From sequence record MT446422.1: a stretch of 64,000 nucleotides of DNA; one strand, written 5' to 3'. Origin of the DNA: Escherichia virus TH57. The position numbers and the translations under genes were made by a program. Shown one piece after another: positions 1 to 21,428 of this stretch. Positions within the stretch are counted from its first letter, which is position 1; each line of letters starts with the position of its first letter. Below the pieces are notes generated by a model. The model was not told the DNA's origin. It worked only from the letters and a program-made list of their open reading frames with translations, and did no database searches.

Positions 1-44
1 CATCTTAATTACAAGCGTTACGCCTGTCAACTAAATCACGATAA

Positions 45-66
45 CAAAAAACCCCCTTTCGGGGGC
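45..66 (-). terminator. Rho-independent terminator downstream of the methyltransferase gene
   Basis: Plus-strand A-run followed by CCCCC-TTTC-GGGGG hairpin; on the minus strand this reads as hairpin plus T-run just after the ORF ending at 108. Confidence 0.5.
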
Positions 67-107
67 GGGTCATAGTCAACCGCTTTAAACCAGCTTGCCG
101 TTGCAAG

Positions 108-809
108 TCAGAGATCGTCGAACGAGCTAATCCAGACTCTACGATCTTCCTGGAAGGCAGGCAAGCGCGGCGCACCTAATTCACGCAGACGGTCGCGGTG
201 GATAGCCAGCACCGGCGGCGCGCCTTCTTCATTGCGGCGGTGGAAATGACGTGAGAAGATCAGCAGCGACGAGGCGAACCCGGACGACTGAGGTTTCACA
301 CCGTTGGCCCACACCGGCAACTGGAAGGTGATGCGCCCTTTGATATTGAAAATGCAGTCTGCAGGGAAGTCGGATAACTCGTCAGGCCACCAGCTTTCGC
401 TAGGGGCGTGCTTCGTCAGCAGGCAGATATTTGCGCCGTTGTCGCGCTCCTCCTTCACCTTCGCCATGATATTCAACATCCCGGTGTACGGCTCATCGTC
501 ATGCTCAAACGGACGGCTGTACGGTGGGTTGCCGTAACACCATGCGCCAGCGCCACCGTATTTCAGGGAGTCGCCATGCCAGTCCTGCACCAGCGCGTTG
601 TTTGCCTGGCTGTAGTAGTGGTCGCATTTGGAGTTCTGCCCGTCGGTAAACAGGTCCAGCGCGAACCGGCTTCCGTTGGTAACGAACGCCTCGATGCCAC
701 AAAACTCCAGGTCAGGCGTGCGCCACTGGTCCCCGATCTCTTTGAGGTCGTGAAAGTCCTGCATCTTAATGTCGATCAGCTTTTCCAGGTATGGATTCAT
801 CCGGCTCAT
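108..809 (-). CDS. DNA N6-adenine methyltransferase, phage Dam-like family
   Basis: Track ORF 108..854; NPPY catalytic motif (CYGNPPYS) plus WRTPDLEF and SKCDHYY blocks typical of phage Dam-type MTases; start moved to internal Met (residue 16) that overlaps the stop of the upstream ORF; GC-rich unlike the phage backbone. Confidence 0.55.
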   Translation of the reverse strand: MSRMNPYLEKLIDIKMQDFHDLKEIGDQWRTPDLEFCGIEAFVTNGSRFALDLFTDGQNSKCDHYYSQANNALVQDWHGDSLKYGGAGAWCYGNPPYSRPFEHDDEPYTGMLNIMAKVKEERDNGANICLLTKHAPSESWWPDELSDFPADCIFNIKGRITFQLPVWANGVKPQSSGFASSLLIFSRHFHRRNEEGAPPVLAIHRDRLRELGAPRLPAFQEDRRVWISSFDDL

Positions 810-1051
810 TGACCACCTGCCAGTTTTGCAAGGCGCTCCTCTAACTGCCACCATTCCTGTTTACGGGCATCCGCGCCGCACTGCATGATGTCCACCCGGC
901 ACGGCAGTTTGGTGAGCGTCACAAAGATGCGATTCTCATCGCTGCCGCCTTTGCGGATGATGGCGGTCTGTGCGGCCCACGCCAAAGTGAGCGTCGGGTG
1001 GTTCTTAACCTTGTGCTCGATGCGCTCGCGGAAAGTGATGAAGTTCCCCAT
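806..1051 (-). CDS. hypothetical protein (GC-rich module, coupled to the methyltransferase)
   Basis: 81-aa ORF, same strand and same GC-rich composition, stop overlaps the downstream MTase start; no recognisable motif. Confidence 0.35.
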   Translation of the reverse strand: MGNFITFRERIEHKVKNHPTLTLAWAAQTAIIRKGGSDENRIFVTLTKLPCRVDIMQCGADARKQEWWQLEERLAKLAGGQ

Positions 1052-1068
1052 TAATCTGTTACCCCGTA

Positions 1069-1629
1069 TTGCTTTTTAAGGTCGTCGAGTGCGATCTGCA
1101 GCAGTTGCATCTGGTAGACCGCCTCCCCGTTTTTTTCGAAAAGCTTAGTGATAAGTACACTCTCAAAGAATTAACGTTAATATTCATGTCAAACCTGGTC
1201 GCGAACCAGGATGCATGGATAGGCGATATAAGTGATGCCGATGCTCTGATATTTTATAGGGAATACATCGGCAGACTTAAAAGAATTAGACAAGTATACG
1301 AAGATGATATAAAGAATATCTATTACTTCAGTAAGAAAGTCGAAGTCAAATCGCTTCAAGAGATTTTCGAGTATAATACTAAAGTGAATACAAGTTATAT
1401 TTTCAAACTTCTCCAATCGAATGTTATCTCATTTGAAACGTTTTGTTTGCTTGATTCATTTTTAGATATTATAAATAAACATGATGAACAGACTAACGAC
1501 TTGGTTTGGGAAAAGTATTCAACCAAACTAAATGCCTATAAGAAAATCTTAAATATCGATTCTCTTGAAGCTCGTAAATTGTTCATCGAGACCGTTAAAA
1601 ACTGTCAAATAACGCTTCAAGCACTTTGA
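1069..1629 (+). CDS. 59: gene 59 helicase-loader homolog, N-terminally truncated; possible pseudogene
   Basis: Immediately upstream of gene 32 on the same strand as in T4; AT-rich phage-like sequence and gp59-like sequence (KLSDKYTLKELTLIF, SNLVANQDAWIGDISDADALIFYREYIGRL, as recalled from T4 gp59, not database-checked) begin only at ~1120; track ORF starts with TTG at 1069 inside GC-rich DNA, first ATG at 1186; at most 186 aa versus 217 aa in T4. Confidence 0.5.
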   Translation: MLFKVVECDLQQLHLVDRLPVFFEKLSDKYTLKELTLIFMSNLVANQDAWIGDISDADALIFYREYIGRLKRIRQVYEDDIKNIYYFSKKVEVKSLQEIFEYNTKVNTSYIFKLLQSNVISFETFCLLDSFLDIINKHDEQTNDLVWEKYSTKLNAYKKILNIDSLEARKLFIETVKNCQITLQAL

Positions 1630-1637
1630 AGTATAAT
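1613..1637 (+). promoter_or_regulatory. T4-type middle promoter for gene 32 (MotA-box variant CGCTTCA, 12 nt, TATAAT)
   Basis: MotA-box-like CGCTTCA followed 12 nt later by TATAAT, ~55 nt upstream of the gene 32 ATG, inside the 3' end of gene 59. Confidence 0.5.
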
Positions 1638-1689
1638 TAATACGTAATCAAAACAACTGCTAAAAATCAAATAATCTAAGGAAAATCAT

Positions 1690-2601
1690 ATGTCTATGTT
1701 TAAACGTAAAAACCCTGCTGACCTGGCTGCTTCCCTTAACGCTCTGAAAGGTGGTTCTGGTTTCTCTTCTGACGATAAAAAAGAATGGAAACTGAAAGAT
1801 ACTGATGGCGTCGGTTCTGCGGTTATTCGTTTCCTGCCTTCCAAAAATGAAGAAAATCCATCTCCGTTCATCAAGCTCGTTAATCACGGCTTTAAAAATG
1901 GCGGTCAATGGTATATTGAAAACTGTACTTCTACCCACGGCGATTATGAAAACTGCCCTGTGTGTGCGTACATGAATAAGAATGACCTGTACAACACAAA
2001 CGAATCCGAATATCGTAAACTGAAGCGTAATACTTCTTACTGGGCTAACATCCTGGTCATTAAAGACCCTGCTGTTCCGTCTAACGAAGGTCAAGTATTT
2101 AAATATCGCTTCGGCAAGAAAATCATGGACAAAATTAACCAGATGGTTGAAGTCGATGTTGATATGGGCGAAACAGCTATTGATGTAACTTGTCCTTTTG
2201 AAGGTGCAAACTTTGTACTGAAATCTAAACTGGTTTCCGGTTATAAAAACTACGATGATTCCAAATTCATGAACCAGTCTGAAATCGCTGGTATCAATGA
2301 TGAAGCATTCCAGAAAAAACTTTGGGACGAAATGTCTGACCTGAATGAATTGCTGGTGTTTAAATCCCTTGAAGAGAATCAGAAGAAATTCTCTAAAGTA
2401 ATGGGTACAGCTGCTCTTGGTGGTGCTGCTTCTAAAGCCGCTGCACAAGCTGATAAACTGGGCGCTGACCTGGACGATTTTGATAAAGATATGGAAGACT
2501 TCACTTCCAGCAAACCTGCTAAGTCTGAACGCACTGCGACTGCTCCAAGCACTCCAGAGCCTTCTGATGATGGTCTTGACGACCTGCTGGCTGGCCTTTA
2601 A
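1690..2601 (+). CDS. 32: single-stranded DNA-binding protein gp32
   Basis: 303 aa; N-terminus [61 protein letters not shown] and acidic Asp/Ser-rich C-terminus closely match T4 gp32; strong SD AAGGAAA. Confidence 0.95.
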
Positions 2602-2606
2602 TATAA

Positions 2607-2630
2607 GGGACCTTAGGGTCCCTTTTTTAT
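2607..2630 (+). terminator. Rho-independent terminator after gene 32
   Basis: GGGACC-TTAG-GGTCCC hairpin followed by a T-run. Confidence 0.7.
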
Positions 2631-2643
2631 TTTCAAAAAGTAG

Positions 2644-2672
2644 TGTACAAGTCCTTTGAGCTAAGGCATAAT
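2644..2672 (+). promoter_or_regulatory. T4-type early (sigma70-like) promoter
   Basis: TGTACA, 17 nt, CATAAT; the -10 and downstream leader are nearly identical to the copy at 20986-21034. Confidence 0.55.
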
Positions 2673-2715
2673 GATTCCATACTGAGTTACACGATAAACA
2701 ACTGAGGAAATTAAA

Positions 2716-3084
2716 ATGATGGAAACTGGTAAATTTTATACATTAGACCCTGCTGCCAAAAAACAATTCATCGCTGGTAGCCCTGATGACAATTCGCGCA
2801 TGGTCAAGCTGATGGAACAGCATGGCAGTTCCTTCAAAGTCCTGGATATGTGCTTTATTGATGGCGATTATTTTGTTGAAAAAGTTGAAATGAAAGATGG
2901 TACCATCTTGGATAGTATGGATGATGCTGATGAGTACTTTGAACTCGCTGAATGGGAATTCCGCCACTTCCTGGAAGTTGATGAAGATGCTCCTGTTGTT
3001 GACACGCAAACCATTCATGTGCAGGTTAATCACAAAAATGCTGCTGAAGTCATTGCCTTGATTAAAGCTACCTTTGGAATTTAA
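2716..3084 (+). CDS. hypothetical early protein (paralog family with 3404..3766 and 17128..17670)
   Basis: 122-aa ORF with SD GAGGAAA; shares N-terminal GKFY...AKKQFIAG and C-terminal DDYFEL...EEEF motifs with 3404..3766. Confidence 0.5.
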   Translation: MMETGKFYTLDPAAKKQFIAGSPDDNSRMVKLMEQHGSSFKVLDMCFIDGDYFVEKVEMKDGTILDSMDDADEYFELAEWEFRHFLEVDEDAPVVDTQTIHVQVNHKNAAEVIALIKATFGI

Positions 3085-3085
3085 T

Positions 3086-3340
3086 ATGACTAAAGATGAT
3101 TTCCTGGATGCAGTAGAAAAAGCCAGCGAACAGTTTGAAGTGATGGGTGTACGTGTCCATAAAGACCGAAATTACGGACTTGATGTTCAAACGTATTCTC
3201 TATGGCTTGTAGGCGAGCATAGTCTTGTAACCACTTTAGTTATGGGTGTAGATACTTATCCTTTGTTAGTCAAGTTCAGAAGTCTGGAAAAAGCTACTAA
3301 AGAAATGACCAAACTTGGTAAATGGCTCGACAAAATTTAA
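3086..3340 (+). CDS. hypothetical early protein
   Basis: Track ORF 3074..3340 begins at TTG; first ATG at 3086 (MTKDDF). Confidence 0.4.
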   Translation: MTKDDFLDAVEKASEQFEVMGVRVHKDRNYGLDVQTYSLWLVGEHSLVTTLVMGVDTYPLLVKFRSLEKATKEMTKLGKWLDKI

Positions 3341-3403
3341 AAAGTTGTTTGCACTATCTTTAAACATGATATTATACCTATCAAAACAAATGAGGAAATT
3401 AAA

Positions 3404-3766
3404 ATGGAAATCGGCAAAAAATATGAGTTCAATCCAAATCGTATTAAATCTTTCATTGATAATAGTTCATCGAATGCTAGTATGGTTGACATCATCCAAG
3501 AAAATGGTGGTTGGTTTGAAGTTAAATCAATATCAAGGGCAGACGGTCTTGATTATGTAACCGAAATCATTTGCGCTAACGGTGCAATCTATAATGATGA
3601 TGGTATGGGTGATGATTATTTTGAACTTAGTGAAGAAGAGTTTTATTGCTTCCGAGAATACTCCAGTTATACAAAAACACCTTCAGGAGCGGTTTCTATT
3701 AATTGTGTTGTAGATGCTAATAACGTCGACCAAATCATTGAACTTCTGCAAAAAGCTTTCAAATAA
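3404..3766 (+). CDS. hypothetical early protein (paralog of 2716..3084)
   Basis: 120-aa ORF, SD GAGGAAA; shares motifs with 2716..3084. Confidence 0.5.
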   Translation: MEIGKKYEFNPNRIKSFIDNSSSNASMVDIIQENGGWFEVKSISRADGLDYVTEIICANGAIYNDDGMGDDYFELSEEEFYCFREYSSYTKTPSGAVSINCVVDANNVDQIIELLQKAFK

Positions 3767-3769
3767 CAG

Positions 3770-3805
3770 TTTACAAAGGGTCTATGGTTGAGATATTATA
3801 GACCT
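3770..3805 (+). promoter_or_regulatory. T4-type early promoter with dyad symmetry across the -10
   Basis: TTTACA, ~17 nt, ATATTA/TATTAT; inverted repeat GGTCTAT...ATAGACC flanks the -10. Confidence 0.45.
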
Positions 3806-3828
3806 ATCAACTACCTGAGGAAAATAAA

Positions 3829-4056
3829 ATGGCTAAAGTTAATATTGATATTGTTGATTTTGAATACACTTACGAAGTTATCCGTAATCGTTATCCTTCT
3901 TTGAGTATGACTTATATTAAAGATACCCAATTCTTCAGTATCCAAATTGAAATCCAAGGTCCTCTTGAAGACCTTACTCGTTTTATGACTGACGAGTATT
4001 GTGATGGTATGCATGTTGAAGATGCTGAATTTTATATGGGCTTAATCCAAAAATAA
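3829..4056 (+). CDS. hypothetical early protein
   Basis: 75-aa ORF with SD GAGGAAAA 7 nt upstream. Confidence 0.45.
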
Positions 4057-4058
4057 AT

Positions 4059-4093
4059 GTTTACAACAGGCTATGGTAATGATACTATAGCCT
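4059..4093 (+). promoter_or_regulatory. T4-type early promoter with dyad symmetry across the -10
   Basis: GTTTACA, 17 nt, TACTAT; inverted repeat AGGCTAT...ATAGCCT. Confidence 0.45.
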
Positions 4094-4114
4094 TACCAAC
4101 TTGAGGAGAATAAA

Positions 4115-4354
4115 ATGAAATTACAACGTGAGAGCATCAAAGATTCAGAAGTTAAAGGTAAATGGTACTTCACAATCCAGGGTAACAATCCAGAAGCTCT
4201 GGAAAAAGCTGAAGAAACTTTGTGTGCAATGGGTTGGAAAGATGAGTGTGATGGTTGTCCTCTTTATGAAGATGGTAGCTCATCTGGTTTCTGGATTCAT
4301 CACTCTGACGTTGACCAATTTAAAGCTGACTGGAAAGTCGCTAAGAAAGCGTGA
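4115..4354 (+). CDS. hypothetical early protein (Cys-containing, 79 aa)
   Basis: ORF with SD GAGGAGAA. Confidence 0.45.
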   Translation: MKLQRESIKDSEVKGKWYFTIQGNNPEALEKAEETLCAMGWKDECDGCPLYEDGSSSGFWIHHSDVDQFKADWKVAKKA

Positions 4355-4364
4355 GGAAAATAAT

Positions 4365-4724
4365 ATGTCCGACATTCATGTAACCGGAATTACCCAAGTA
4401 AGAATTCATTGCCAACTTAAAACTGCACCCGGGATGGCTTATATTAATTTATCACATGACCTAGATTCTCGCGAAAGTCTGTTAACTGGTGTAATTACGT
4501 TTTACACTGGAATCGGCGGAAACGAATTTACTGTAGGCGAGATTGTTGGTCATAAATTAAAAGTTCAGAAGAACGTGTTAGAACTTTTTAATGACCTTTA
4601 TGATGATAGCGATGAAGTTTTTGATGAAATCACACAAGCAGTTAACAAAGGAATGGTAACTTTAGTTAAAATGATTAACTCTATTGGATATGCTCCTGAC
4701 CCTTTTCGATGGGAGATAATATAA
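4365..4724 (+). CDS. hypothetical early protein
   Basis: Track ORF 4128..4724; start placed at Met 80 (MSDIHV), which has SD GAGGAAAA. Confidence 0.45.
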   Translation: MSDIHVTGITQVRIHCQLKTAPGMAYINLSHDLDSRESLLTGVITFYTGIGGNEFTVGEIVGHKLKVQKNVLELFNDLYDDSDEVFDEITQAVNKGMVTLVKMINSIGYAPDPFRWEII

Positions 4725-4816
4725 TTTTTGTATTTGAGTTTATGAATGATGAATTCTATTATGCAATGCTTTAAAAATTGTATAGTCTTGATTTAAATGA
4801 ATTTGAGGAAAATATA

Positions 4817-5154
4817 ATGCTTACTGAATACACTTGCTTTGCTAAAGATGATGCACATCCTGAACTGATTCTTGAAGTTAAGGTTAATACGCTTGAACAA
4901 AAATTTGATTGGAGCCTTTACATCTATCCTAAAAATATTATTGATGGTCCACAGAAATATACGCTTAATGACAAGTGCATTAGTGGTATCATTGGATATG
5001 GTACAAGTGGAAGCAAGTATTCATTAGAAGATATTCGTCAATCTCGTTGTGCGGTATCATATTTTGATACAGATATAATTAAACATCTTTATAAATTGGT
5101 TCTTGATATTCGCAAAGATTTTACTGCCATCAAAAAGGCAACTAAGGAATTAAA

Positions 5155-5158
<4 letters not shown>
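4817..5158 (+). CDS. hypothetical early protein
   Basis: Track ORF 4778..5158 begins at TTG; ATG at 4817 follows SD GAGGAAAA. Confidence 0.45.
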
Positions 5159-6817
<1,659 letters not shown>

Positions 6818-6878
6818 TGAAAATTCAAATTGCCGGTGTTATATTTTTGGTCGTAATGGTCGGGCTTAACTTCCTACT

Positions 6879-7178
6879 ATGAAAGCCTGTCGGGTTGTTA
6901 ACAAATATCAATCCGACTTTGATGTGAATATTCAACGGGGTACCATGTGGGGGAACCCATATAAAGATGGTACCCGAGAAGAAAACATAAAGAACTTTAA
7001 AGAATATTTCATAGCAAAGATTAAATCGGGTGAAATCAAAAGAGAACACCTTGAAACCCTTCGCGGAATGCGATTAGCTTGTACATGCAAACCAAAAGCA
7101 TGTCATGGGGATATCATCGCTCTGGTCGTTAACAAACTTTTCAAAGACACCTTTTCGCTCGAGGATTTGGGCGCATAA
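6879..7178 (+). CDS. conserved small protein, DUF4326-like
   Basis: 99 aa; WGNPY ... LACTCKPKACHGDII pattern resembles the DUF4326 family; between td and nrdA. Confidence 0.4.
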   Translation: MKACRVVNKYQSDFDVNIQRGTMWGNPYKDGTREENIKNFKEYFIAKIKSGEIKREHLETLRGMRLACTCKPKACHGDIIALVVNKLFKDTFSLEDLGA

Positions 7179-7187
7179 ATACGATTC

Positions 7188-7222
7188 CGCTTCAGGGTCA
7201 TGTGTTATTATAAGCATGACCC
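7188..7222 (+). promoter_or_regulatory. MotA-box-like middle promoter overlapping a perfect 8-bp hairpin upstream of nrdA
   Basis: CGCTTCA then ~11 nt then TATTAT; inverted repeat GGGTCATG ... CATGACCC (8-bp stem, 12-nt loop) spans the -10. Confidence 0.4.
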
Positions 7223-7243
7223 CATTTTATAACAGAGGAAAAC

Positions 7244-9499
7244 ATGCAAGTACAAAAAAGTAGTGGCGTATCTCAAGATTTTGATGGCCAGAAAATTATT
7301 AAAGTTCTTTCCTGGTCATGCGAAGGAACCAATATCGACCCGTATGAATTATACGAAACAATCAAACCACATCTGCGCGATGGTATGACTACTCGCGATA
7401 TTCAGACGGTTATCATCAAAGTGTCTGCTGGACTTATCTCGGTTGAAGAACCAGATTACCAATACGTTGCGGCGAAGGCTACGATGTTTGCTCTGCGTAA
7501 AGATGTTTATGGCCAGTTCGAGCCACGTTCTTTTATTGACCAGATTTCTTATTGTGTCAATGAAGGCAAATATGACCCGGAGCTGTTGTCAAGCTACTCG
7601 GCTGAAGAGATTACTTACCTGGAATCTCGTATCAAGCACGAACGTGATTTTGACCTGACTTATGCAGGCGCGATGCAGTTGAAAGAGAAATACCTGGTTA
7701 AAGATAAAACCACTGGGAAAATCTATGAGACTCCGCAGTTCGCTATCATGGCCATCGGCATGGCACTGCATCAGGATGAACCAACGGACCGTCTGAAGCA
7801 CGTTTGTCGTTTTTATGATGCAGTATCCACGCAGCAGATTTCGTTGCCCACACCTATCATGGCGGGCGCCAGAACACCTACCCGACAGTTCAGTTCATGC
7901 GTGGTTATCGAAGCTGCTGACTCCCTGAAGTCAATTAATAAGACTGCTAATTCAATCATCGAATATATCAGTAAGCGTGCAGGTATCGGTATCAACGTTG
8001 GCATGATTCGTGCTGAAGGTTCGAAAATTGGTATGGGTGAAGTCAAGCATACTGGTGTTATTCCGTTCTGGAAACATTTCCAAACGGCTGTTAAATCCTG
8101 TTCACAAGGTGGAATCCGTGGCGGCGCTGCTACTGCTTATTATCCTATTTGGCATTTGGAAGTTGAAAATTTACTCGTTCTGAAGAACAACAAAGGCGTT
8201 GAAGAAAACCGTATCAGGCATATGGACTATGGTGTCCAGTTGAATAACCTGATGATGGAACGACTGGCCAAGAATGATTACATCACTCTGTTTAGTCCAC
8301 ACGAAGCTGGCGGTGAATTGTATTATTCATATTTTGATAACCCGGATAAATTCCGTGAGTTATATGAAGCCTTAGAAAAAGACCCATCAGTTCGTAAGAA
8401 ACGTATCAAAGCAAAAGATGTATTTGAATTATTCATGACCGAACGTTCCGGTACAGCCAGGGTTTATCCACAATTCGTTGATAACGTGAATGACTATACT
8501 CCGTTCATCCGCGATAAGGCTCCGATTCGTCAATCAAACCTTTGCTGCGAAATTGCAATCCCGACTACTGATGTGAACAGCGAAGACGCTGAAATCGGAT
8601 TGTGCACATTGTCTGCATTTGTTCTGGATAGTTTTGACTGGCAGGACCAAGATAAGATTAACGAGCTAGCCGAAGTTCAAGTTCGTGCTCTTGACAACCT
8701 GTTGGACTATCAGGGTTATCCGGTTAAAGAAGCTCTGAAAGCCAAAAAACGCCGCAACCTGGGTGTTGGGGTTACTAACTATGCTGCATGGCTGGCAAGC
8801 AATTTCGCTTCCTACGCTGATGCAAACGATTTAACGCATGAACTGTTCGAGAGATTACAATATGGCCTTATCCGAGCATCAATCAAGCTCGCCAAAGAAA
8901 AAGGACCTTGCGAATATTATTCAGACACTCGTTGGGCTCGAGGCGAATTACCTATCGACTGGTACAATAAAAAGATTGACCAAATCGCAGCTCCAAACTA
9001 CGTTTGTGACTGGGCGCAGTTGCGGGAAGACCTGGTTGAACATGGCATCCGTAATAGCACATTATCAGCACTTATGCCTTGTGAGTCATCTTCCCAAGTT
9101 TCTAACAGTACAAACGGTATCGAACCTCCGCGTGGACCAGTCTCTATTAAAGAGTCAAAAGAGGGTTCCTTTAATCAAGTCGTGCCCAATATTGAGCACA
9201 ATAAAGGATTGTACGATTACGCATGGGTGTTAGCTAAGCAGGGTAACAAACCTTATCTGACCCAAGTCGCGATTATGTTGAAATGGATTTGTCAGTCAGC
9301 ATCGGCGAATACGTATTATGACCCGCAGAATTATCCGAAAGGAAAAGTTCCGATGTCAGTTATGCTTGACGACTTGATGTACTTCTGGTATTTTGGTGGA
9401 AAAAACCTTTATTATCATAACACTAGAGATGGTTCCGGTACAGACGATTACGAAATCGAAGCTCCTAAAGCAGAAGACTGCTCCGCCTGTAAACTTTGA
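7244..9499 (+). CDS. nrdA: ribonucleoside-diphosphate reductase, alpha (large) subunit
   Basis: 751 aa; class I RNR large-subunit active-site motifs (NLCCEI, ALMPCESSS) and C-terminal Cys pair. Confidence 0.95.
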   Translation: MQVQKSSGVSQDFDGQKIIKVLSWSCEGTNIDPYELYETIKPHLRDGMTTRDIQTVIIKVSAGLISVEEPDYQYVAAKATMFALRKDVYGQFEPRSFIDQISYCVNEGKYDPELLSSYSAEEITYLESRIKHERDFDLTYAGAMQLKEKYLVKDKTTGKIYETPQFAIMAIGMALHQDEPTDRLKHVCRFYDAVSTQQISLPTPIMAGARTPTRQFSSCVVIEAADSLKSINKTANSIIEYISKRAGIGINVGMIRAEGSKIGMGEVKHTGVIPFWKHFQTAVKSCSQGGIRGGAATAYYPIWHLEVENLLVLKNNKGVEENRIRHMDYGVQLNNLMMERLAKNDYITLFSPHEAGGELYYSYFDNPDKFRELYEALEKDPSVRKKRIKAKDVFELFMTERSGTARVYPQFVDNVNDYTPFIRDKAPIRQSNLCCEIAIPTTDVNSEDAEIGLCTLSAFVLDSFDWQDQDKINELAEVQVRALDNLLDYQGYPVKEALKAKKRRNLGVGVTNYAAWLASNFASYADANDLTHELFERLQYGLIRASIKLAKEKGPCEYYSDTRWARGELPIDWYNKKIDQIAAPNYVCDWAQLREDLVEHGIRNSTLSALMPCESSSQVSNSTNGIEPPRGPVSIKESKEGSFNQVVPNIEHNKGLYDYAWVLAKQGNKPYLTQVAIMLKWICQSASANTYYDPQNYPKGKVPMSVMLDDLMYFWYFGGKNLYYHNTRDGSGTDDYEIEAPKAEDCSACKL

Positions 9500-9537
9500 T
9501 ATAATTATGCTCATGGATGAGCTATTGAGGAAATAAA

Positions 9538-10716
9538 ATGAGTACAGTTTTTAATACCACTCCGGTGGATGTTTTAGCCGAGCCTATGTTTTTTGGTTCA
9601 GGATTGGGGATTGCCCGTTATGATATCCAGCGTCATAAAGTTTTCGAAGAATTAACAGAAAAGCAATTATCATTCTTCTGGCGTCCAGAGGAAGTAAACC
9701 TGATGATGGACGGAGCCCAATTTAATAAGCTTCCTGAACATCAACAAAATATTTTTACCAACAACCTGAAATACCAATCACTTCTGGATAGTATCCAGGG
9801 TCGTGCTCCAGCTGCAGCATTAGCCGCATTAGTTTCTGACCCAAGTCTTGATACATGGATTCAGACCTGGACATTCAGCGAGACAATTCACTCTCGTTCT
9901 TATACGCACATAATGCGAAATCTTTATACGGACCCGGCGAAGGTATTCGACGAAATCCTGTTAGATGATGCAATCATGAAGCGCGCAGAATCCATCGGTC
10001 ATTACTATGATGATGTTCTGAATAAAACTCGTCAATGGCAAAACCAGATTGCTTTTGTTGAACTGGCCAAAGAAACTCCCGAAGCGGACGAACGTTTGGA
10101 ACGAGCTATCAAACAAGAATCTATCGCCAAACGAGCATTGATGAAGTCTCTTTATCTCTGCCTGCATGTCATTAATGCCCTGGAAGCCATTCGTTTTTAT
10201 GTATCTTTTGCTTGTACTTTCAACTTCCATAAGAACATGGAAATCATGGAAGGCAATGCGAAGATAATGAAGTTCATCGCCCGTGATGAACAGCTCCACC
10301 TTAAGGGGACTCAATATATTCTTCGTCAGTTGCAGACTGGTACCGACGGTGACGAATGGGTTAAAATCGCACATGAATGTGAAGCAGAAGCCGCAGCCAT
10401 TTTCATGGAAGTTAATCGCCAGGAAAAAGAATGGGCCGTGCATCTGTTTAAAGATGGTGGACTTCCTGGGTTGAGCGTCGAGATTCTTAACCGGTTCATC
10501 GATTACCTGACGGTTTCTCGTATGAAGCAATGCGGTCTCCCGTGTGAAATCGTGTTAGAATCTACTAAGCACCCGATTCCATGGATTCGCGAATATCTTA
10601 ACTCTGATAATGTGCAATCAGCACCGCAAGAAGTTGAGTTGTCTGCTTACCTGGTAGCCCAGATTGACAATGACGTCGATGAGAACGTTCTTGCTGGTTT
10701 CCGTAAATATCTATAA
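9538..10716 (+). CDS. nrdB: ribonucleoside-diphosphate reductase, beta (small) subunit (uninterrupted, no intron)
   Basis: 392 aa; R2-type sequence with di-iron ligands (ETIHSRSY, ALEAIRFYVSFA, RDEQLH); continuous ORF. Confidence 0.95.
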   Translation: MSTVFNTTPVDVLAEPMFFGSGLGIARYDIQRHKVFEELTEKQLSFFWRPEEVNLMMDGAQFNKLPEHQQNIFTNNLKYQSLLDSIQGRAPAAALAALVSDPSLDTWIQTWTFSETIHSRSYTHIMRNLYTDPAKVFDEILLDDAIMKRAESIGHYYDDVLNKTRQWQNQIAFVELAKETPEADERLERAIKQESIAKRALMKSLYLCLHVINALEAIRFYVSFACTFNFHKNMEIMEGNAKIMKFIARDEQLHLKGTQYILRQLQTGTDGDEWVKIAHECEAEAAAIFMEVNRQEKEWAVHLFKDGGLPGLSVEILNRFIDYLTVSRMKQCGLPCEIVLESTKHPIPWIREYLNSDNVQSAPQEVELSAYLVAQIDNDVDENVLAGFRKYL

Positions 10717-10721
10717 GGAAA

Positions 10722-10738
10722 GGGCTTCGGCCCTTTTT
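10722..10738 (+). terminator. Rho-independent terminator after nrdB
   Basis: GGGCTTCGGCCC hairpin followed by TTTTT. Confidence 0.6.
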
Positions 10739-10742
10739 GTCT

Positions 10743-11153
10743 ATGAAACAAATCGCTGACGAATACAGTTTTATAAAATACGCGGAGTTGGAGTTAGTCG
10801 ATGGTAAAATCCCTATCCTTACTCTCGCAAACAAGAAAAATGTTATCTATGCTATTTCAGTTGATGATGAACTAGTGTATATTGGTAAGACGAACAACCT
10901 TAAGAAGCGTATCAACTATTACCGGACTGCAATTAACCGAATCGAACAGACGAGTGATTCAAACAAATCCCGGATGATACATGAAGCTTTACAAGAAGGC
11001 AAAAAGGTGGTATTCTATGCACGACAATGTTTCAATCTGTCAATGACCAATGAGCTTGGCACGATGTCAGTCGAAACTATGTCTCTGGAAGAGCCGATGT
11101 TCATCAAGCTTTTTAATCCCCCGTGGAATTACCAACATAAGGTGAAGAAATGA
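10743..11153 (+). CDS. denA: endonuclease II (GIY-YIG family)
   Basis: 136 aa from ATG at 10743 (MKQIADEY); GIY-YIG-like VIYAISVDDELVYIGKTNNLKKRINYY; FYARQCFNLSMTNELGT and KLFNPPWN match T4 DenA; position after nrdB as in T4. Confidence 0.8.
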   Translation: MKQIADEYSFIKYAELELVDGKIPILTLANKKNVIYAISVDDELVYIGKTNNLKKRINYYRTAINRIEQTSDSNKSRMIHEALQEGKKVVFYARQCFNLSMTNELGTMSVETMSLEEPMFIKLFNPPWNYQHKVKK

Positions 11154-12286
11154 TTGAATTATATGACAACTTAATGAAGCTGTGCGCCGAATCTGAAAAA
11201 GGTAAGTTTTTCTATACTGATTTCGTTTCTCCATTTGAAACTAAGTTCCGCATCTTTAGCTATAACTATGCTTCCTATAGTGATTGGCTACTGGATGATG
11301 CACTTGAATGTCGCGGCATTATGTTTGAAATGGATGACAATGGCCCAGTTCGCATTGCGGCCCGTCCTATGGAAAAATTCTTTAATCTGGGTGAGAACCC
11401 AATGACCATGGACCTTAACCTTGATGAAGTTGTCCTGGTTACTGCAAAAGCTGATGGTAGTTTGGTTTCCACTTATATGGACCAGACCAATATCGCCTTT
11501 AAATCCAAAGGGTCAATCAAAAGCTCACAAGCTGCAGAAGCTCTGCAGGTGTTTAAACAACCTCATCGTGAAGCGTTCAGGGCGCGTGTGACTGAAATCA
11601 CTGAAGCTGGATATACTTGCAATATGGAATATGTTGCACCAACCAATCGCATTGTTCTTCCTTATCAGGAACGTGACCTGATTTTGCTGAACGTTCGTCA
11701 TAATGAAACTGGTGAATATATTCCTTATCCTGAATTGTTCAAAGATGCTGCGCTCCGTCCTTTCCTGGTTGAAGCATATGACCCGGCGAGCATTGAGAAT
11801 GTTCGTGGTATGAAAGAGATTGAAGGCTTCGTCTATGAGCTGGCGAGTGGTCAGAAGTTCAAGATGAAAACAGAATGGTATTGTGCTCTACATCATACCA
11901 AAGACTCCATTAATAATAATGAGCGACTGTTTGAGGTTGTTGTTGCTGGCGGGGCTGATGATGTTATTGCCATGTTTACTGGCGATGATTACGCTCGTGA
12001 AAAAGTTAATGCCTTTACCATTGTACATCTGGATTATCTGTCCAACACTCTTGGACTGTTGCTTGATGCACAAAAACAGTTAGCAGGAAAAGACCGTCGC
12101 GAGTTTGCGATTAAAGGTCAAGAGTTGTGTAAACCATACCCGGGATTGTTCTCCGTATTAATGAACACCTATCAACGCCCACAGGAAACTGAACAAACGA
12201 TTGCTCAAATCAATAAAGTTTTCCTTAAAAATCATAAACTTTACATTCCGTTGGACTACCAGGCGGAAGTAATCCTTCCTGAATAA
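11150..12286 (+). CDS. rnlA: RNA ligase 1
   Basis: 378 aa; FRIFSYNYASYSDWLLDDALECRGIMFEMDDNGPVRIAARPMEKFFNL and lysine nucleotidyl-transferase motif TAKADGSLVSTY match T4 Rnl1 (gene 63). Confidence 0.9.
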   Translation: MIELYDNLMKLCAESEKGKFFYTDFVSPFETKFRIFSYNYASYSDWLLDDALECRGIMFEMDDNGPVRIAARPMEKFFNLGENPMTMDLNLDEVVLVTAKADGSLVSTYMDQTNIAFKSKGSIKSSQAAEALQVFKQPHREAFRARVTEITEAGYTCNMEYVAPTNRIVLPYQERDLILLNVRHNETGEYIPYPELFKDAALRPFLVEAYDPASIENVRGMKEIEGFVYELASGQKFKMKTEWYCALHHTKDSINNNERLFEVVVAGGADDVIAMFTGDDYAREKVNAFTIVHLDYLSNTLGLLLDAQKQLAGKDRREFAIKGQELCKPYPGLFSVLMNTYQRPQETEQTIAQINKVFLKNHKLYIPLDYQAEVILPE

Positions 12287-12296
12287 TAAAAAGGGG

Positions 12297-12325
12297 TGTA
12301 CAAGCCCCTCCTTTCTATACATAAT
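12297..12325 (+). promoter_or_regulatory. T4-type early promoter
   Basis: TGTACA, 17 nt, CATAAT; the first ATG of the downstream track ORF lies inside the -10, so the CDS start was moved to 12357. Confidence 0.5.
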
Positions 12326-12356
12326 GGTTCCATCAACTACTGATGAGGACCAAAAC

Positions 12357-12590
12357 ATGTTAAACTTAATTACAAATGACAGAGTTACACAGGCATATGG
12401 TGACAGAAATGATGGAATCTATGTCTACAAGGGAGACCGCCGGATTGGTTTCATTACTGACCTGAAGGCCAAATTGTTAAAAGAATTGAAAGCCCAAACA
12501 AGTGATTCTGGGTTTAGAGCAAGAGCCAAAAAGAAAGATGAGCGCCTGGGTGCCAACTCTTTTGGTCCTAGAGGTTACAACCGCTACTAA
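12357..12590 (+). CDS. hypothetical protein, stand-alone paralog of the N-terminal domain of the following alc-like gene
   Basis: 77 aa from Met 12 (SD GAGGA); YGDRNDGIYVYKGDRRIGFITDLKAKL parallels YGDRHDGIYVYKGTKKIGLMTDLRKKL in 12604..13107. Confidence 0.4.
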   Translation: MLNLITNDRVTQAYGDRNDGIYVYKGDRRIGFITDLKAKLLKELKAQTSDSGFRARAKKKDERLGANSFGPRGYNRY

Positions 12591-12603
12591 TGAGGAAAAT
12601 ATT

Positions 12604-13107
12604 ATGGATATGCAACTGATTTCAAACGAAATGATTGTCAATGAATATGGTGACCGCCATGACGGAATTTATGTCTATAAAGGGACCAAGAAAATTGGTC
12701 TCATGACTGACCTGCGGAAAAAACTCGCCTCCAATAAAAAGTTGAAGGCGAAACAAAAAGAATATCGTGATAAAAAATCAGAAGAGCGGAAAGAAGCACT
12801 GCATGAATCTGTTCCTGAAATGGTTGACTTCTTAAAGAACCATTTGGTTAAATATGATGCAGAAGTGTTCATTAACCAGACCCAACCTAATGTACATATC
12901 AATGGATGTGTTTGTTATGTTGTGGTTGAACCCCTGACACTTCAACACCGCCTGGGGATTAAACACCCAGTGTTAACCCAGGATGATATGGCGGATGAAG
13001 TTGGTAATCAGTTCCGCATTTCAGCGTCTGACAGTACAAATCACATCCTCCTGAATGGTTTATCCCAGGATGATATTGTTGAGGTAATCATCAAGTTATG
13101 CAAATAA
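12604..13107 (+). CDS. alc: putative Alc (host-transcription inhibitor) homolog
   Basis: 167 aa, same length as T4 Alc by memory, and sits between rnlA and pseT as in T4; assignment by synteny and size only. Confidence 0.4.
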   Translation: MDMQLISNEMIVNEYGDRHDGIYVYKGTKKIGLMTDLRKKLASNKKLKAKQKEYRDKKSEERKEALHESVPEMVDFLKNHLVKYDAEVFINQTQPNVHINGCVCYVVVEPLTLQHRLGIKHPVLTQDDMADEVGNQFRISASDSTNHILLNGLSQDDIVEVIIKLCK

Positions 13108-13451
13108 GTAATCTCACCGCAGGGCTTATGCTAGCCCTGGTAGTAACTGCTGGTAGTGGTTTCTATCTAAAAGCAAAAGTAGATAATCTCAAGACAGCGG
13201 TGGCGGAAGTCACCAAAGTTGCAGAAGATAATGCGAAAAATCTGCAATCAGTAAAAGACCAGATTAATCAAATTAATCTCCTTGACCAGGAGCGTCAGGA
13301 ATATGTTGAACTTCTGCAGAAGGAAAATGATAAACTCCGTGCGGATGCAAAACGTACTAAGGTTGTGGCAGCGAAGCCTAAATTAGTTGAAAAACAGATT
13401 AATCAGTCCTTTGATAAGTTTGCCCAGGACTTCCAGGAGCTCACCAAATGA
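13098..13451 (+). CDS. i-spanin (Rz-like inner-membrane spanin, pseT.3-like)
   Basis: 117 aa; N-terminal transmembrane helix LTAGLMLALVVTAGSGFYL followed by a charged coiled-coil domain; start overlaps upstream stop. Confidence 0.6.
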   Translation: MQISNLTAGLMLALVVTAGSGFYLKAKVDNLKTAVAEVTKVAEDNAKNLQSVKDQINQINLLDQERQEYVELLQKENDKLRADAKRTKVVAAKPKLVEKQINQSFDKFAQDFQELTK

Positions 13452-13738
13452 TGAAATCTATCATGGCAGTATGTTTGGCTATTGGGCTCGTTTCATGTGC
13501 CCAGAAGCCCGTTGTGGAGCCCACAATCCAAGTTCATCCTAATTGGCCTGTTGCATTGGCTGATTACAAGCAGCAATGGGAAGTGAGGGTAATTGATGGC
13601 CAGGCCTGGGTTGGTATGCCTTTTGAAGCATCGCAAGAATTTAGAATCTGGCTGAACGATGTAAAAAGGTATGTACATGACCAAAAAGGTATGTTATGTT
13701 ATTATCGTTCTGAACTAAAAGAGGAGCGTTGCAAATGA
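13448..13738 (+). CDS. o-spanin (Rz1-like outer-membrane lipoprotein, pseT.2-like)
   Basis: 96 aa; signal peptide with lipobox LVSC; ATGATGA overlap with the i-spanin gene. Confidence 0.6.
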   Translation: MMKSIMAVCLAIGLVSCAQKPVVEPTIQVHPNWPVALADYKQQWEVRVIDGQAWVGMPFEASQEFRIWLNDVKRYVHDQKGMLCYYRSELKEERCK

Positions 13739-13843
13739 TTGAGGCGTGTACTGACGGATGGGATATCTTTCGATTTGGTGCTGCATGTTTTTGTTTTGGA
13801 ATCGTGTTTAGCATGTGCATGCATGGTATTTTTGGAAAGTAGT

Positions 13844-13871
13844 GTACAAACTCATGGGAGCAGAGTATAAT
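13844..13871 (+). promoter_or_regulatory. T4-type early promoter
   Basis: TGTACA, 16 nt, TATAAT. Confidence 0.5.
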
Positions 13872-13905
13872 GCTCCTACGGATTATAAAATTTGAGGAAA
13901 TGACT

Positions 13906-14384
13906 ATGACTTTACGTGATAACAGTTTTGTGGCTAAGCCTGAATACATTTCAAGTATTAAATCTCCTGTATTACAAAAGCTCTTAAAATTAGGGTCCTG
14001 CGCAAGTACACCGATTGAAAAGAAAGCCACTTTCAATTATACTTGGACTAATATAAATGGCATTGATGTAATAAAACAGGTAACTTTTTATGCTCCGGGT
14101 GCTATTGAGCCTTCGCAGATTATTAATCTTGAGGAATACCAATATGTTCCACTTCAATATTGGTATCGTATGATGCTCCCTGTGTGGGAATACCCTGAAT
14201 TCATTGAAGAGTACAATGAAAAAGAACGTATTCGCGAGCTAGTAAAAAGTTTTGAATATGCAGCTAAACGCCATGGTCAAATGCAAGCTGCCGCTACACT
14301 TGGTGATGTTTCTGAAAGCGCAGCTTATGAAACTGGTAAAATCCTTAAAACTTGTCGCGAAGAACTTTATAAGGAGCTTGGTGT

Positions 14385-14388
<4 letters not shown>
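13906..14388 (+). CDS. hypothetical protein
   Basis: Track ORF 13870..14388; first ATG lies in the promoter -10; start placed at Met 13 after SD GAGGAAA. Confidence 0.45.
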
Positions 14389-16249
<1,861 letters not shown>

Positions 16250-16275
16250 TGTATGTCCTCTTTGGTGATATACTA

Positions 16276-16283
16276 TATTTATA
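16276..16283 (-). promoter_or_regulatory. T4 late promoter (TATAAATA) for the HNH gene
   Basis: Minus-strand TATAAATA ~25 nt upstream of the HNH ATG, followed by SD AAAGAGGA. Confidence 0.5.
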
Positions 16284-16310
16284 CTCAAGTAGTGGAGATG
16301 TGGAAAACCT

Positions 16311-16508
16311 ATGAATAATATCGAAAAGATTTTTCGTACAATCGAAGAGATTGAAAAACGTTACGAATACTTTTTCAGTGTATGGCCTTTAACTGACGGA
16401 CGTATTGGCCTAGATGTAATGGACTACAAAGATGAAGACAAGGTCGATGGCGGTATTTTTAAATCCGCGCCGGAACTCCTTGCCTTCTTGGAAGAACATT
16501 ATGTATAA
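16311..16508 (+). CDS. hypothetical protein
   Basis: 65-aa ORF. Confidence 0.35.
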   Translation: MNNIEKIFRTIEEIEKRYEYFFSVWPLTDGRIGLDVMDYKDEDKVDGGIFKSAPELLAFLEEHYV

Positions 16509-16716
16509 CAAACATCATGAAATTGAAGAAGAAGCTTATAAAGAGCTTCAGAAACTGGTAGGGCAAAATATGTCTCCTGCTCTTATCAACAACCTGGCTG
16601 CACTGCGTAATGACATCAACGAACGGTACAAGGGCGAATATTATGTTGAATTCGTTCCGCTGACTGAAGTCATTGACCGATTTATCGTTAATGTCAGGGT
16701 GCATACCGTCCATTAA
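16501..16716 (+). CDS. hypothetical protein
   Basis: Track ORF 16432..16716; ATG at 16501 overlaps the stop of the upstream ORF. Confidence 0.35.
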   Translation: MYNKHHEIEEEAYKELQKLVGQNMSPALINNLAALRNDINERYKGEYYVEFVPLTEVIDRFIVNVRVHTVH

Positions 16717-16741
16717 CGCTTTAAAAATTTTATGGTATAAT
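16717..16741 (+). promoter_or_regulatory. MotA-box-like middle promoter
   Basis: CGCTTTA, 12 nt, TATAAT, then GGGGTCTAGGTCC resembling the conserved GGTTCTAGACCC element. Confidence 0.45.
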
Positions 16742-16788
16742 GGGGTCTAGGTCCTTTGGATAATCCCAATAACTAAGCGAGAAAAGAA

Positions 16789-17067
16789 ATGTTTCCTACA
16801 TATTCTGAAATTGTTAAAGTAGTTTTTAGTCAGATTTTATCTGATTATCTATACGAAAGCGTCGACGTGTCGACTGAACTAAAAGTACACGGTCGTTTGT
16901 CTGCTATTCTGGAAATCATGTTCCCGGATGCAGTTGATGCAATCACTGTCCAACTCACGTCTGGTGCAGCATTCGCAATTGTTCCGTTTAAAATTGATGG
17001 AGCCACTTTGACCGTTTCGTGCAAGGTTGACTTCCAAAATCAAACTGCAATTGCAGAAGCAATTTAA
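16789..17067 (+). CDS. hypothetical protein
   Basis: 92-aa ORF downstream of the middle promoter. Confidence 0.4.
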   Translation: MFPTYSEIVKVVFSQILSDYLYESVDVSTELKVHGRLSAILEIMFPDAVDAITVQLTSGAAFAIVPFKIDGATLTVSCKVDFQNQTAIAEAI

Positions 17068-17069
17068 GT

Positions 17070-17098
17070 GTTTACTTTCACCACGGATGGTGTATAAT
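17070..17098 (+). promoter_or_regulatory. T4-type early promoter
   Basis: GTTTAC, 17 nt, TATAAT. Confidence 0.5.
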
Positions 17099-17127
17099 GA
17101 ATTTCATCGACACATGAGGAAAACAAA

Positions 17128-17670
17128 ATGAGTAATTTCTTTGAAGAAGGCAAGTTTTACAAATTTGTATCTGAAAATGCCAAAAAACAATTTATTGCCG
17201 GAGGCTGGGCAGCTAATTACCAAATTGCTGGATACATCGGTATGACTCCGTTTGAAGTTAAGATTTTACCTGATAATGTTAGCGGCGGTAAAAAAGTTTG
17301 TGAGATTCGTTTGATTGATGAAAATGATTTTGTGGATTTGGCAAAAATATCTGGCACACAGAACAGGCATCATGGAGCAATATTTGTTTCCAATGGTCCT
17401 TTGTCAGATGAATTTGAATATTTCATCCAGGTAGAAGTTGGTGTTAAGCCAGAAGTTGAGCCTGTACCAGCGAAACTTGCATCAGTTTGGAAATTGCTTG
17501 TGGTTAAAAATGGCAAGATTGAGATTAACTCTCGTCATACGTCAAAAGAATACGCGGAAGGCGAAGCCGAGCGTTTGTTAAACCGCGGTACTGCAGAAGA
17601 TTGTTATATTATCAAAGGTGATATCACAAAAGCTTCTATCGTTAAACAAGTAAAACAGGAGACAATCTGA
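17128..17670 (+). CDS. hypothetical protein (N-terminus paralogous to 2716..3084)
   Basis: 180 aa; N-terminal EEGKFYKFVSENAKKQFIAGG matches the GKFY...AKKQFIAG motif of 2716..3084; SD GAGGAAAA. Confidence 0.45.
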   Translation: MSNFFEEGKFYKFVSENAKKQFIAGGWAANYQIAGYIGMTPFEVKILPDNVSGGKKVCEIRLIDENDFVDLAKISGTQNRHHGAIFVSNGPLSDEFEYFIQVEVGVKPEVEPVPAKLASVWKLLVVKNGKIEINSRHTSKEYAEGEAERLLNRGTAEDCYIIKGDITKASIVKQVKQETI

Positions 17671-17903
17671 TGCTTAGCGAAACCCCAATTACTGTTGAAG
17701 AGTTCCACGAAAAAGTGAAGTCATTTGCTCAAGAGATGATTAACCGAGTATCGCAGCGATTCCCTGATGCGACTCTGAAAGTTATTCAGGAATCTGCACG
17801 CAGTTTTATGATTGTCATTAATCCAAAAAATGGTGACCAGTTTACCCAACTGAAATTGGGTTCTGATGGTCTGGTTGAAGCGCAGCGAGTGTACATTCAA
17901 TGA
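17670..17903 (+). CDS. hypothetical protein
   Basis: 77-aa ORF, ATGA-type coupling to upstream gene. Confidence 0.4.
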   Translation: MLSETPITVEEFHEKVKSFAQEMINRVSQRFPDATLKVIQESARSFMIVINPKNGDQFTQLKLGSDGLVEAQRVYIQ

Positions 17904-18235
17904 TGAATTTAATGGATATTTTCCAGGAAGCACTTAAAAATGATTTGGGTGACCATCGTAAGTTGGACCCAGAAACAACTGCATTTATCAAAGTAACGCT
18001 TGCGAATGATGCTCTGTTTAAAAGTATTCACCCAAGTAATTATGATGCGGTTGTTATTACAGAAGCTCCTGTAGAAATTGGTGAGCGAATGTTTGGGGTG
18101 ATTTTTGATGATAAGAAAAAACGCTTCAAAGATGGTGATAGTATAATTACAACACATGTTAAGAGCATTACTAAATTGCGACATGAATTATATCGTGTTG
18201 AAACTATTAAAACCAATTATCTCGTGGTGATGTAA
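17900..18235 (+). CDS. hypothetical protein
   Basis: 111-aa ORF with coupled start/stop. Confidence 0.4.
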   Translation: MMNLMDIFQEALKNDLGDHRKLDPETTAFIKVTLANDALFKSIHPSNYDAVVITEAPVEIGERMFGVIFDDKKKRFKDGDSIITTHVKSITKLRHELYRVETIKTNYLVVM

Positions 18236-18817
18236 ATGAAACCAACTACTGTTCTGCAAATAGCATACCTTGTATCTCAAGAATCAAAATGTTGCTCCTG
18301 GAAAGTGGGAGCTGTTATTGAAAAGAATGGTCGCATTATTTCTACAGGGTATAATGGTTCCCCTGCAGGTGGGGTTAACTGTTGCGAGCATGCAGAGGAG
18401 CAAGGTTGGTTACTGAATAAACCTAAACCTGTTCTCGTCCCTGGTCATAAGCCAGAATGTGTGAGATTCAGTAAGGTTGACCGTTTTGTATTGGCGAAAG
18501 CTCATCGTGAAGAACATTCTGCATGGTCAAAGAACAACGAAATCCATGCTGAGCTTAATGCGATTCTGTTCGCAGCAAGGATGGGTTCGTCAATTGAAGG
18601 CGCTACTATGTATGTGACGCTTTCTCCTTGCCCTGACTGTGCAAAGGCAATTTCTCAATCAGGAATCAAGAAATTGGTTTACTGTGAAACGTATGATAAG
18701 AATATTCCTGGTTGGGATGATATCCTGAAGAATGCAGGAATTGAGGTGTTCAATGTGCCTAAGCGTAGTCTAGACAAATTGAACTGGGAAAACATTAACG
18801 AATTTTGTGGTGAATAA
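18236..18817 (+). CDS. cd: dCMP deaminase
   Basis: 193 aa; zinc-binding deaminase motifs HAELNA and SPCPDCA; same length as T4 Cd. Confidence 0.9.
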   Translation: MKPTTVLQIAYLVSQESKCCSWKVGAVIEKNGRIISTGYNGSPAGGVNCCEHAEEQGWLLNKPKPVLVPGHKPECVRFSKVDRFVLAKAHREEHSAWSKNNEIHAELNAILFAARMGSSIEGATMYVTLSPCPDCAKAISQSGIKKLVYCETYDKNIPGWDDILKNAGIEVFNVPKRSLDKLNWENINEFCGE

Positions 18818-19050
18818 TGAAATTTCGTCTAGTTAAGTTTTCAGGTCTGAACTCAAAAGGTGAAAACCTGGTAGCCTATTCAGTAGAATATAAAAAGTAC
18901 TTTTTCTCTCGTTGGAAATCGTACTATAAATCCGAGTGGGTTCGCCCCGAAATGAACTATAAAACGGTGCCTATTCTTGAAAATTGTCATAGCCTATTAA
19001 GAGCTCTAAAAGAGCGTAATGCAACAACCATTAAAACTGTTTTGGAATAA
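18817..19050 (+). CDS. hypothetical protein
   Basis: 77-aa ORF coupled to cd. Confidence 0.4.
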   Translation: MKFRLVKFSGLNSKGENLVAYSVEYKKYFFSRWKSYYKSEWVRPEMNYKTVPILENCHSLLRALKERNATTIKTVLE

Positions 19051-19052
19051 TT

Positions 19053-19352
19053 ATGATTTTAACTGAACAAGAAACAATTCGTCTCCGTGAAAAAGTCAAG
19101 ACTATTTTGTCTGTTGGTTTTCACGAAGTTCTGTTTGAAAAAGCAGATGGTAGCATCCGTCGTATGACTTGCACTCGCGACCTGGACCTGCTGCCGTATA
19201 AAGAAACCCAGGCCCCTGGTCCAGAAGCTCATAAAGAACCAGTTAGCTATATCCGGGTATTTGATACCAAGCTTAATGAATGGCGTTCATTCTGTTTCAA
19301 TAAATTGATTTCCGTGAATGGACTGCAGACCGAGACTCTGCTTGTCCTTTAA
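19053..19352 (+). CDS. hypothetical protein
   Basis: 99-aa ORF. Confidence 0.4.
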   Translation: MILTEQETIRLREKVKTILSVGFHEVLFEKADGSIRRMTCTRDLDLLPYKETQAPGPEAHKEPVSYIRVFDTKLNEWRSFCFNKLISVNGLQTETLLVL

Positions 19353-19377
19353 TGCTTCAAACGGTGCGTGTTATTAT
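19353..19377 (+). promoter_or_regulatory. T4-type middle promoter for gene 31 (MotA box TGCTTCA)
   Basis: AATGCTTCA, 12 nt, TATTAT immediately upstream of gene 31. Confidence 0.5.
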
Positions 19378-19383
19378 TAATAC

Positions 19384-19731: not shown

Positions 19732-19740
19732 AATTAGCGT

Positions 19741-20551: not shown

Positions 20552-20556
20552 GTTCA

Positions 20557-21424: not shown

Positions 21425-21428
21425 AACA

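Follow-up and report, generated by a model that had tools for sequence, protein, structure and literature searches.

A truncated gene 59 in the sequence record of Escherichia virus TH57: a probable technical join of two unrelated phage genomes

Gene 59 of bacteriophage T4 encodes gp59, a two-domain helical protein whose role is to recognize branched DNA and to place the gp41 helicase on DNA coated with gp32 (PMC3012046). The gp59 of Gaprivervirus phages aligns to the T4 protein (PDB 1C1K) without gaps over residues 1-216 (E=1.5e-107), so that residue numbers transfer directly from one protein to the other. The surroundings of the gene in T-even phages are also known as a site of mobile insertions. 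Indeed, SP18 and several of its relatives carry segG between genes 59 and 32.

Here, we describe how this locus appears in 64,000 nucleotides of Escherichia virus TH57 (record MT446422.1), the whole stretch being called the window below. A sequence-only reading had proposed that gene 59 is truncated at its 5' side by a GC-rich insertion. We consider instead, with a probability of about 0.85, that the window spans a non-biological junction of two unrelated phage genomes. JS26-like siphovirus (Casjensviridae) sequence would end at position 1130 and Gaprivervirus sequence would start at position 1131, by chance inside gene 59; the join would most likely have been made when the sequence record itself was made. 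The features on which the discussion bears are collected in Table 1.

Table 1. Features at and around the junction (positions refer to the window).
Feature	Position	Strand	Description or basis
JS26-like (Casjensviridae, Dunedinvirus-like) genome segment	1..1130		56% GC, reaches the left edge of the window
Intrinsic-terminator-like hairpin and T-run, downstream of the methylase gene	51..66	-	Terminator scan: GCCCCCGAAAGGGGGT then TTTTTGTTAT
Dam-like DNA N6-adenine methyltransferase, JS26 gp43 homologue	108..809	-	233 aa from the ATG at 809
81-aa protein, JS26 gp42 homologue	806..1051	-	ORF list; synteny, same length as JS26 gp42
JS26 gp41 homologue, 3' remnant	1051..1130	-	Last 25 codons and stop; first ~77 codons and promoter side missing
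Breakpoint between the two genomes	1130..1131		Essentially blunt, 0-4 nt of possible microhomology in a T-run
Chimeric open frame	1069..1629	+	186 aa, TTG start; 21 codons of foreign DNA, then gp59 codons 58-222 and stop
Gene 59 remnant	1132..1629	+	Residues 58-222 and stop; second half of N-domain and complete C-domain
Gene 32 promoter-like motifs in the 3' part of gene 59	1446..1477	+	Read directly from the sequence
Gene 32 (gp32)	1690..2601	+	Exact protein on 23 public contigs; Pfam PF08804

The open frame upstream of gene 32 is made of two unequal parts. An alignment with the gp59 of ECML-359 and SP18, 222 aa in length, pairs residues 22-186 of the frame with gp59 residues 58-222, from F58 to the C-terminus (165 residues); residues 1-21 of the frame are unrelated to gp59. 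Thus, the earlier description of a 5'-truncated gene that keeps about 165 C-terminal residues is borne out: the first 57 residues are absent. The abrupt start of the gp59-like sequence is also real, but it had been placed at about 1120, whereas homology to T4-like DNA begins exactly at 1131. The N-terminal fork-binding domain had been thought to be missing or replaced by foreign sequence. This is correct for residues 1-57, about half of the domain; the other half remains. Indeed, the frame covers only positions 44-93 of the 93 positions of the Pfam profile T4_Gp59_N (PF08993); the gp59 of an intact relative covers positions 1-93 and has both domains complete. The profile T4_Gp59_C (PF08994) is complete in the frame (positions 1-108 of 109, E=1.2e-39). 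The alignment to gp59 homologues, a check that had been set beforehand, hence gave the expected picture, as the full N-domain is not in the frame and no equally short homologues with the same upstream sequence were found among the contigs examined.

As for expression, the frame has three in-frame starts, TTG 1069, TTG 1105 (codon 13), and ATG 1186, and not only the first and the last of these, as had been stated; the product starting at ATG 1186 would have 147 aa. Reading the sequence by eye, no Shine-Dalgarno sequence is visible at any of the three. A scan of positions 1..1800 for promoters outside the T4 early, middle, and late types found no plus-strand sigma-70-like promoter. Exact look-up in a large protein collection returned no record of the 186-aa chimeric product or of the 147-aa product, and within the window there is no further copy of the gp59 N-terminus or of genes 33, dsbA, and rnh.

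To the right of the junction, positions 1131..64000 (41% GC) belong to a Gaprivervirus (T4-like) genome that is collinear with ECML-359, with identities mostly of 93-97%. The run of genes comprises 59, 32, frd, td, nrdA/B, alt, baseplate and head genes, and neck and tail genes. Within the 3' part of gene 59, a MotA-box-like TTTGCTTGA (1446-1454) is followed, after a 12-nt spacer, by the -10 element TATTAT (1467-1472), and a late-promoter-like TATAAATA (1470-1477) overlaps this element; the consensus forms used for comparison are those of middle and late promoters in T4. The promoter region of gene 32 had been called intact, rightly so, since from 1131 on the sequence is base-for-base the same as in a strain with an intact gene 59. 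For that very reason the remark is uninformative for the window, and the intact motifs are nothing special to it.

To the left, the first 1,130 bases are collinear with positions 19724-20857 of Serratia phage JS26, with 80.8% identity in a single blastn alignment of 1,147 columns that covers window positions 1-1134. All the features on this side, namely the terminator, the methylase gene, the 81-aa gene, and the gp41 remnant, lie on the minus strand and point away from the T4-like genes. The methylase matches Pfam PF05869 (Dam, E=2.6e-28) and PHROG 111 (DNA methyltransferase, E=5e-43), in synteny with JS26 gp43. The 81-aa protein has no match to a Pfam or PHROG family; an 83% identical protein occurs in IMGVR_UViG_3300011525_000002, in which the gene beside the gp42 homologue differs. 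Finally, the translation of the gp41 remnant (...GEAVYQMQLLQIALDDLKKQYGVTD, then the stop) matches the C-terminus of JS26 gp41 (...HGEAVYQMQLLQIELDKLKKQYGVE, then the stop).

Because of its simple collinearity with JS26 and its run to the window edge, this DNA appears to be a slice of a genome rather than a cassette. Its identity of 81% to JS26 further suggests that the source is a distinct species that has not been sampled. No near match to 1..1130 is found among 50,697 phage records. A 25-mer scan for a left-hand parent closer than JS26 gave IMGVR_UViG_3300011525_000002 only, which is no closer, and exact look-up of the 81-aa protein and of the 233-aa methylase in the large protein collection returned no record. 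An E. coli prophage origin was also considered and was rejected, as none of 5,426 complete E. coli genomes gave a match. Coming back to the GC-rich insertion proposed earlier, the step in composition is confirmed (56.4% GC in 1..1130 vs. 41.2% in 1131..64000), but the insertion is not: one boundary is visible, and the GC-rich DNA reaches the left edge of the window.

The naming of the methylase homologues deserves a comment. In JS26 and in several Klebsiella and Aeromonas phages, RefSeq calls this protein "phosphoadenosine phosphosulfate reductase," while the window protein is a Dam or DNA methyltransferase according to Pfam and PHROG. PHROG 33262 matches the window methylase at positions 285-462 of PHROG 33262 only. 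The reductase name has probably spread from fused two-domain proteins.

At the junction itself, the window reads CCCCGT followed directly by TTTTTTCGAAAAG (at greater length, ...GACCGCCTCCCCGT followed by TTTTTTCGAAAAGC...). JS26 and the IMG/VR relative both have CCGTGTTTC across this point, and the base of the left parent at the join is deduced from these two relatives, each at about 80% identity to the left part of the window. The intact T4-like strain has AAGTATTTTTTCGAAAAG, also given as ...GATAAGTATTTTTTCGAAAAGC.... Base 1131 falls in codon 57 of gene 59. Two genes are interrupted here: gene 59 loses its first 57 codons, and the JS26 gp41 homologue, of 102 codons, loses about 77. Their remnants stand head-to-head, each devoid of its own 5' end and promoter side. 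No direct or inverted repeats flank 1130/1131, and neither a target-site duplication nor terminal repeats are seen at the one boundary that is visible. Exact scans of IMG/VR, of the JGI metagenome contigs, and of the GTDB genomes did not return the 34-nt junction sequence. Hence, with no flanking repeats, no mobility gene in view, and two genes cut to head-to-head remnants, the join looks like a random joining of two genomes and not like the insertion of a cassette.

The decisive result comes from the comparison with Logan contig SRR11772948_87 (95,886 bp), which is 100.000% identical to the window, with 0 mismatches and 0 gaps, over the segments 1131-19499, 15977-38037, and 48545-64000 aligned by local megablast (about 52 kb of 62.9 kb). 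Exact look-ups with gp32, NrdA, Alt, fibritin, and a frd.2 paralogue all returned this same contig; a literature look-up of the accession SRR11772948 gave no paper. At the break point the contig simply continues, supplying the missing 5' 170 nt of gene 59; it thereby encodes an intact 222-aa gp59, which is the same as the window frame from residue 58 on; upstream of gene 59 it carries genes 33, dsbA, and rnh, and genes 34-37. More generally, a full-length gp59 (217 or 222 aa) is found in every examined contig that has an identical gp32 or an identical 84-aa neighbor and that reaches gene 59, and all of these contigs show the order rnh-dsbA-33-59-32. In the window, gene 32 does lie downstream of the gene 59 remnant; upstream are JS26-like genes on the opposite strand, and the canonical 33-59-32 context is not found.

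These observations also bear on what the sequence-only reading had made of the truncation. None of its biological inferences, be it an insertion in the genome of a phage, an N-terminus of chimeric origin, or an altered mode of helicase loading, finds support, since the identical strain has an intact gene 59 and a JS26-like gene is cut at the same point. A full-length gp59 encoded elsewhere, which was to be checked for, is not in the window; a complete protein of 222 aa is present in the contig of the identical strain.

We favor a technical join because gene 59 is whole when the identical T4-like phage is assembled independently. The two sequences would have been joined outside any cell, in vitro or in silico. 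Candidate routes would be a chimeric read or ligation product entering the assembly, a scaffolding error, or the end-to-end concatenation of contigs or records. The phage itself would have a normal 222-aa gp59 and would load the gp41 helicase as usual. The truncation of gp59 is then most probably a property of this sequence record and not of a replicating phage. Given a technical junction, no visible ribosome binding site at the three starts, and no plus-strand sigma-70-like promoter upstream, ORF 1069..1629 is most likely a frame that is open by chance, and no shortened helicase loader would be expressed from it. Some points nevertheless count against a technical join. The window sequence is uninterrupted at the break and carries no N-run or comparable sign of a scaffold gap, and a misjoin in a k-mer graph would need a much longer shared sequence than the join offers. 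The large protein collection has no entry for the JS26-like proteins and thus gives no sign that the two phages were sequenced together. Moreover, phage-infected cells do carry out illegitimate recombination that needs little or no microhomology.

A real and very recent event of this last kind has therefore to be weighed. A viable Gaprivervirus would have taken up a Casjensviridae block, with its Dam-like methylase, in gene 59, leaving either a pseudogene or a loader with an altered N-terminus. The continuous sequence across the break would be accounted for, and so would the intact gene 32 promoter region and downstream genes. T4-type genomes are indeed mosaic, and the 59-32-frd region tolerates insertions, as illustrated by segG and by the variable number of frd.2 and frd.3 genes. 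However, the identical strain has an intact locus with 0 differences over about 52 kb, which would require an extremely recent event. The foreign gene at the break is cut as well, and the foreign genes point away from the T4-like ones. No second junction is visible in the window, and the junction is on no other contig in IMG/VR, in the JGI metagenomes, or in GTDB. The recombinant would have to tolerate the loss of half of the gp59 N-domain; in T4, gp59 is needed for normal recombination-dependent replication. Gene 33 and its neighbors would be lost from their position if no further junction follows shortly to the left. Finally, T-even phages degrade unmodified cytosine-containing DNA, and a siphovirus segment of 56% GC would have had to survive this degradation. 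Altogether, we hold such a recombinant to be improbable. The same judgment, expressed somewhat more strictly, applies to a replicating Gaprivervirus that has just captured at least 1.1 kb of Casjensviridae DNA by end joining in gene 59 and that grows with half of its fork-binding domain lost or with no gp59 at all, which we regard as quite improbable. If it were true, helicase loading would be independent of the gp59 N-domain, and gene flow would connect an unrelated phage of 56% GC with a T-even phage that modifies its cytosine.

The chimeric DNA might also be real and yet not heritable, that is, a dead-end molecule that arose in a mixed infection or a mixed lysate and was packaged, or carried along, before being sequenced. 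The disruption of both genes at the break and the blunt join are what random end joining predicts; two unrelated phages would have to be present in one sample. On the other hand, there is no evidence of a shared host; the nearest relative of the left part infects Serratia, and those of the right part infect Escherichia or Shigella. Molecules of this kind are rare, and one would not normally expect them to dominate an assembly path; by sequence alone, they are indistinguishable from a ligation chimera of the library. A dead-end molecule thus seems highly improbable.

That a shortened gp59, started at ATG 1186 (147 aa), TTG 1069, or TTG 1105, works as a helicase loader or gp32 partner made of the C-domain only is hardly credible: T4_Gp59_C is kept complete (E~1e-39) and the frame is open, but no ribosome binding site or upstream plus-strand promoter is visible, the cut at residue 58 splits the helical N-domain (profile positions 44-93 are left) and makes folding unlikely, no homologue of such a length occurs among the contigs examined, and neither short product is on record. 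As to an insertion of the transposon, homing, or integrase type, it is rejected, for there are no boundary repeats and the visible 1,130 nt hold no endonuclease, transposase, or integrase gene according to Pfam and PHROG.

Besides the junction, several features of the Gaprivervirus part were noted. Between genes 32 and frd, at 2716-3766 (+), there are two FRD2-family paralogues (2716..3084 and 3404..3766). The number and the order of frd.2 and frd.3 vary among otherwise near-identical relatives, and this interval is therefore a local hot spot of gene shuffling. A 254-aa homing endonuclease (15524-16288, minus strand; PHROG 655, E=1e-63, with a NUMOD3 motif) is encoded on the strand opposite to its neighbors, just downstream of a pseT-like gene. 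It fills 15630-16311, which is a gap in ECML-359, and is also present on the identical Logan contig. Between the tail sheath (gp18) and tail tube (gp19) genes, an ORF of 201 aa (50862-51467, minus strand) is missing in ECML-359 (gap 50856-51535). It matches PHROG 5104, of unknown function (E=6e-77), with a faint likeness to endonuclease VII, and could represent a further mobile insert.

Two tandem paralogues of 427 and 439 aa (42140-43423 and 43424-44743, both on the minus strand) adjoin the 519-aa major capsid gene 23 (44785-46344, minus strand). Each matches Pfam Gp23 at about 1e-97, and their DNA sequences are about 65% identical to each other. The pair is a duplicated gene for a gp24-type vertex protein; the same pair of sequences is present, unannotated, in ECML-359. 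Lastly, the region 58709-63960, with fibritin, the short-tail-fibre (gp12) region, and beyond, is 68-71% identical to ECML-359 or unaligned, the rest of the window being at 93-97%. Compared with ECML-359, an exchange of the receptor-binding and whisker genes has apparently taken place.

If the join is an artefact, its value is one of quality control only. The record should be split at 1130/1131 before annotation, taxonomy, or host assignment, because the first 1,130 bases, and presumably also the DNA to their left, would come from another phage. Nor should the annotation present ORF 1069..1629 as a variant helicase loader. Were the join real, it would add a rare documented case of DNA passing between a T-even phage and a siphovirus, together with a natural knockout of the gp59 N-domain; the intact gene of the identical strain makes this unlikely.

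The locus can finally be set against the systems that it most resembles. Compared with T4 gp59, residues 58-222 in the window are those of a normal Gaprivervirus gp59, and gene 32 follows downstream as in all relatives; the window copy differs in being devoid of the first 57 residues (N-domain profile positions 1-43) and of genes 33, dsbA, and rnh upstream. With respect to JS26 gp41-gp43, the gene order and orientation in 1..1130 are the same (terminator, methylase, 81-aa gene, gp41 3' end), and the difference lies in the reduction of the gp41 homologue to its last 25 codons. Insertions of the segG type concern the same hot-spot region of T-even phages. In contrast with the window, they sit between intact genes and encode a homing endonuclease, whereas here the break is inside gene 59 and the visible 1.1 kb has no endonuclease gene. 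Chimeric contigs and concatenated records, like the window, show a single abrupt switch of homology and composition, genes broken on both sides, no recombination-site features, and a junction that is missing from an independent assembly of the same genome; the window differs from them in having neither a long shared k-mer nor an N-spacer. There is no new biological feature at this locus, which is an ordinary Gaprivervirus gp59 gene cut by a junction missing from an independent assembly.
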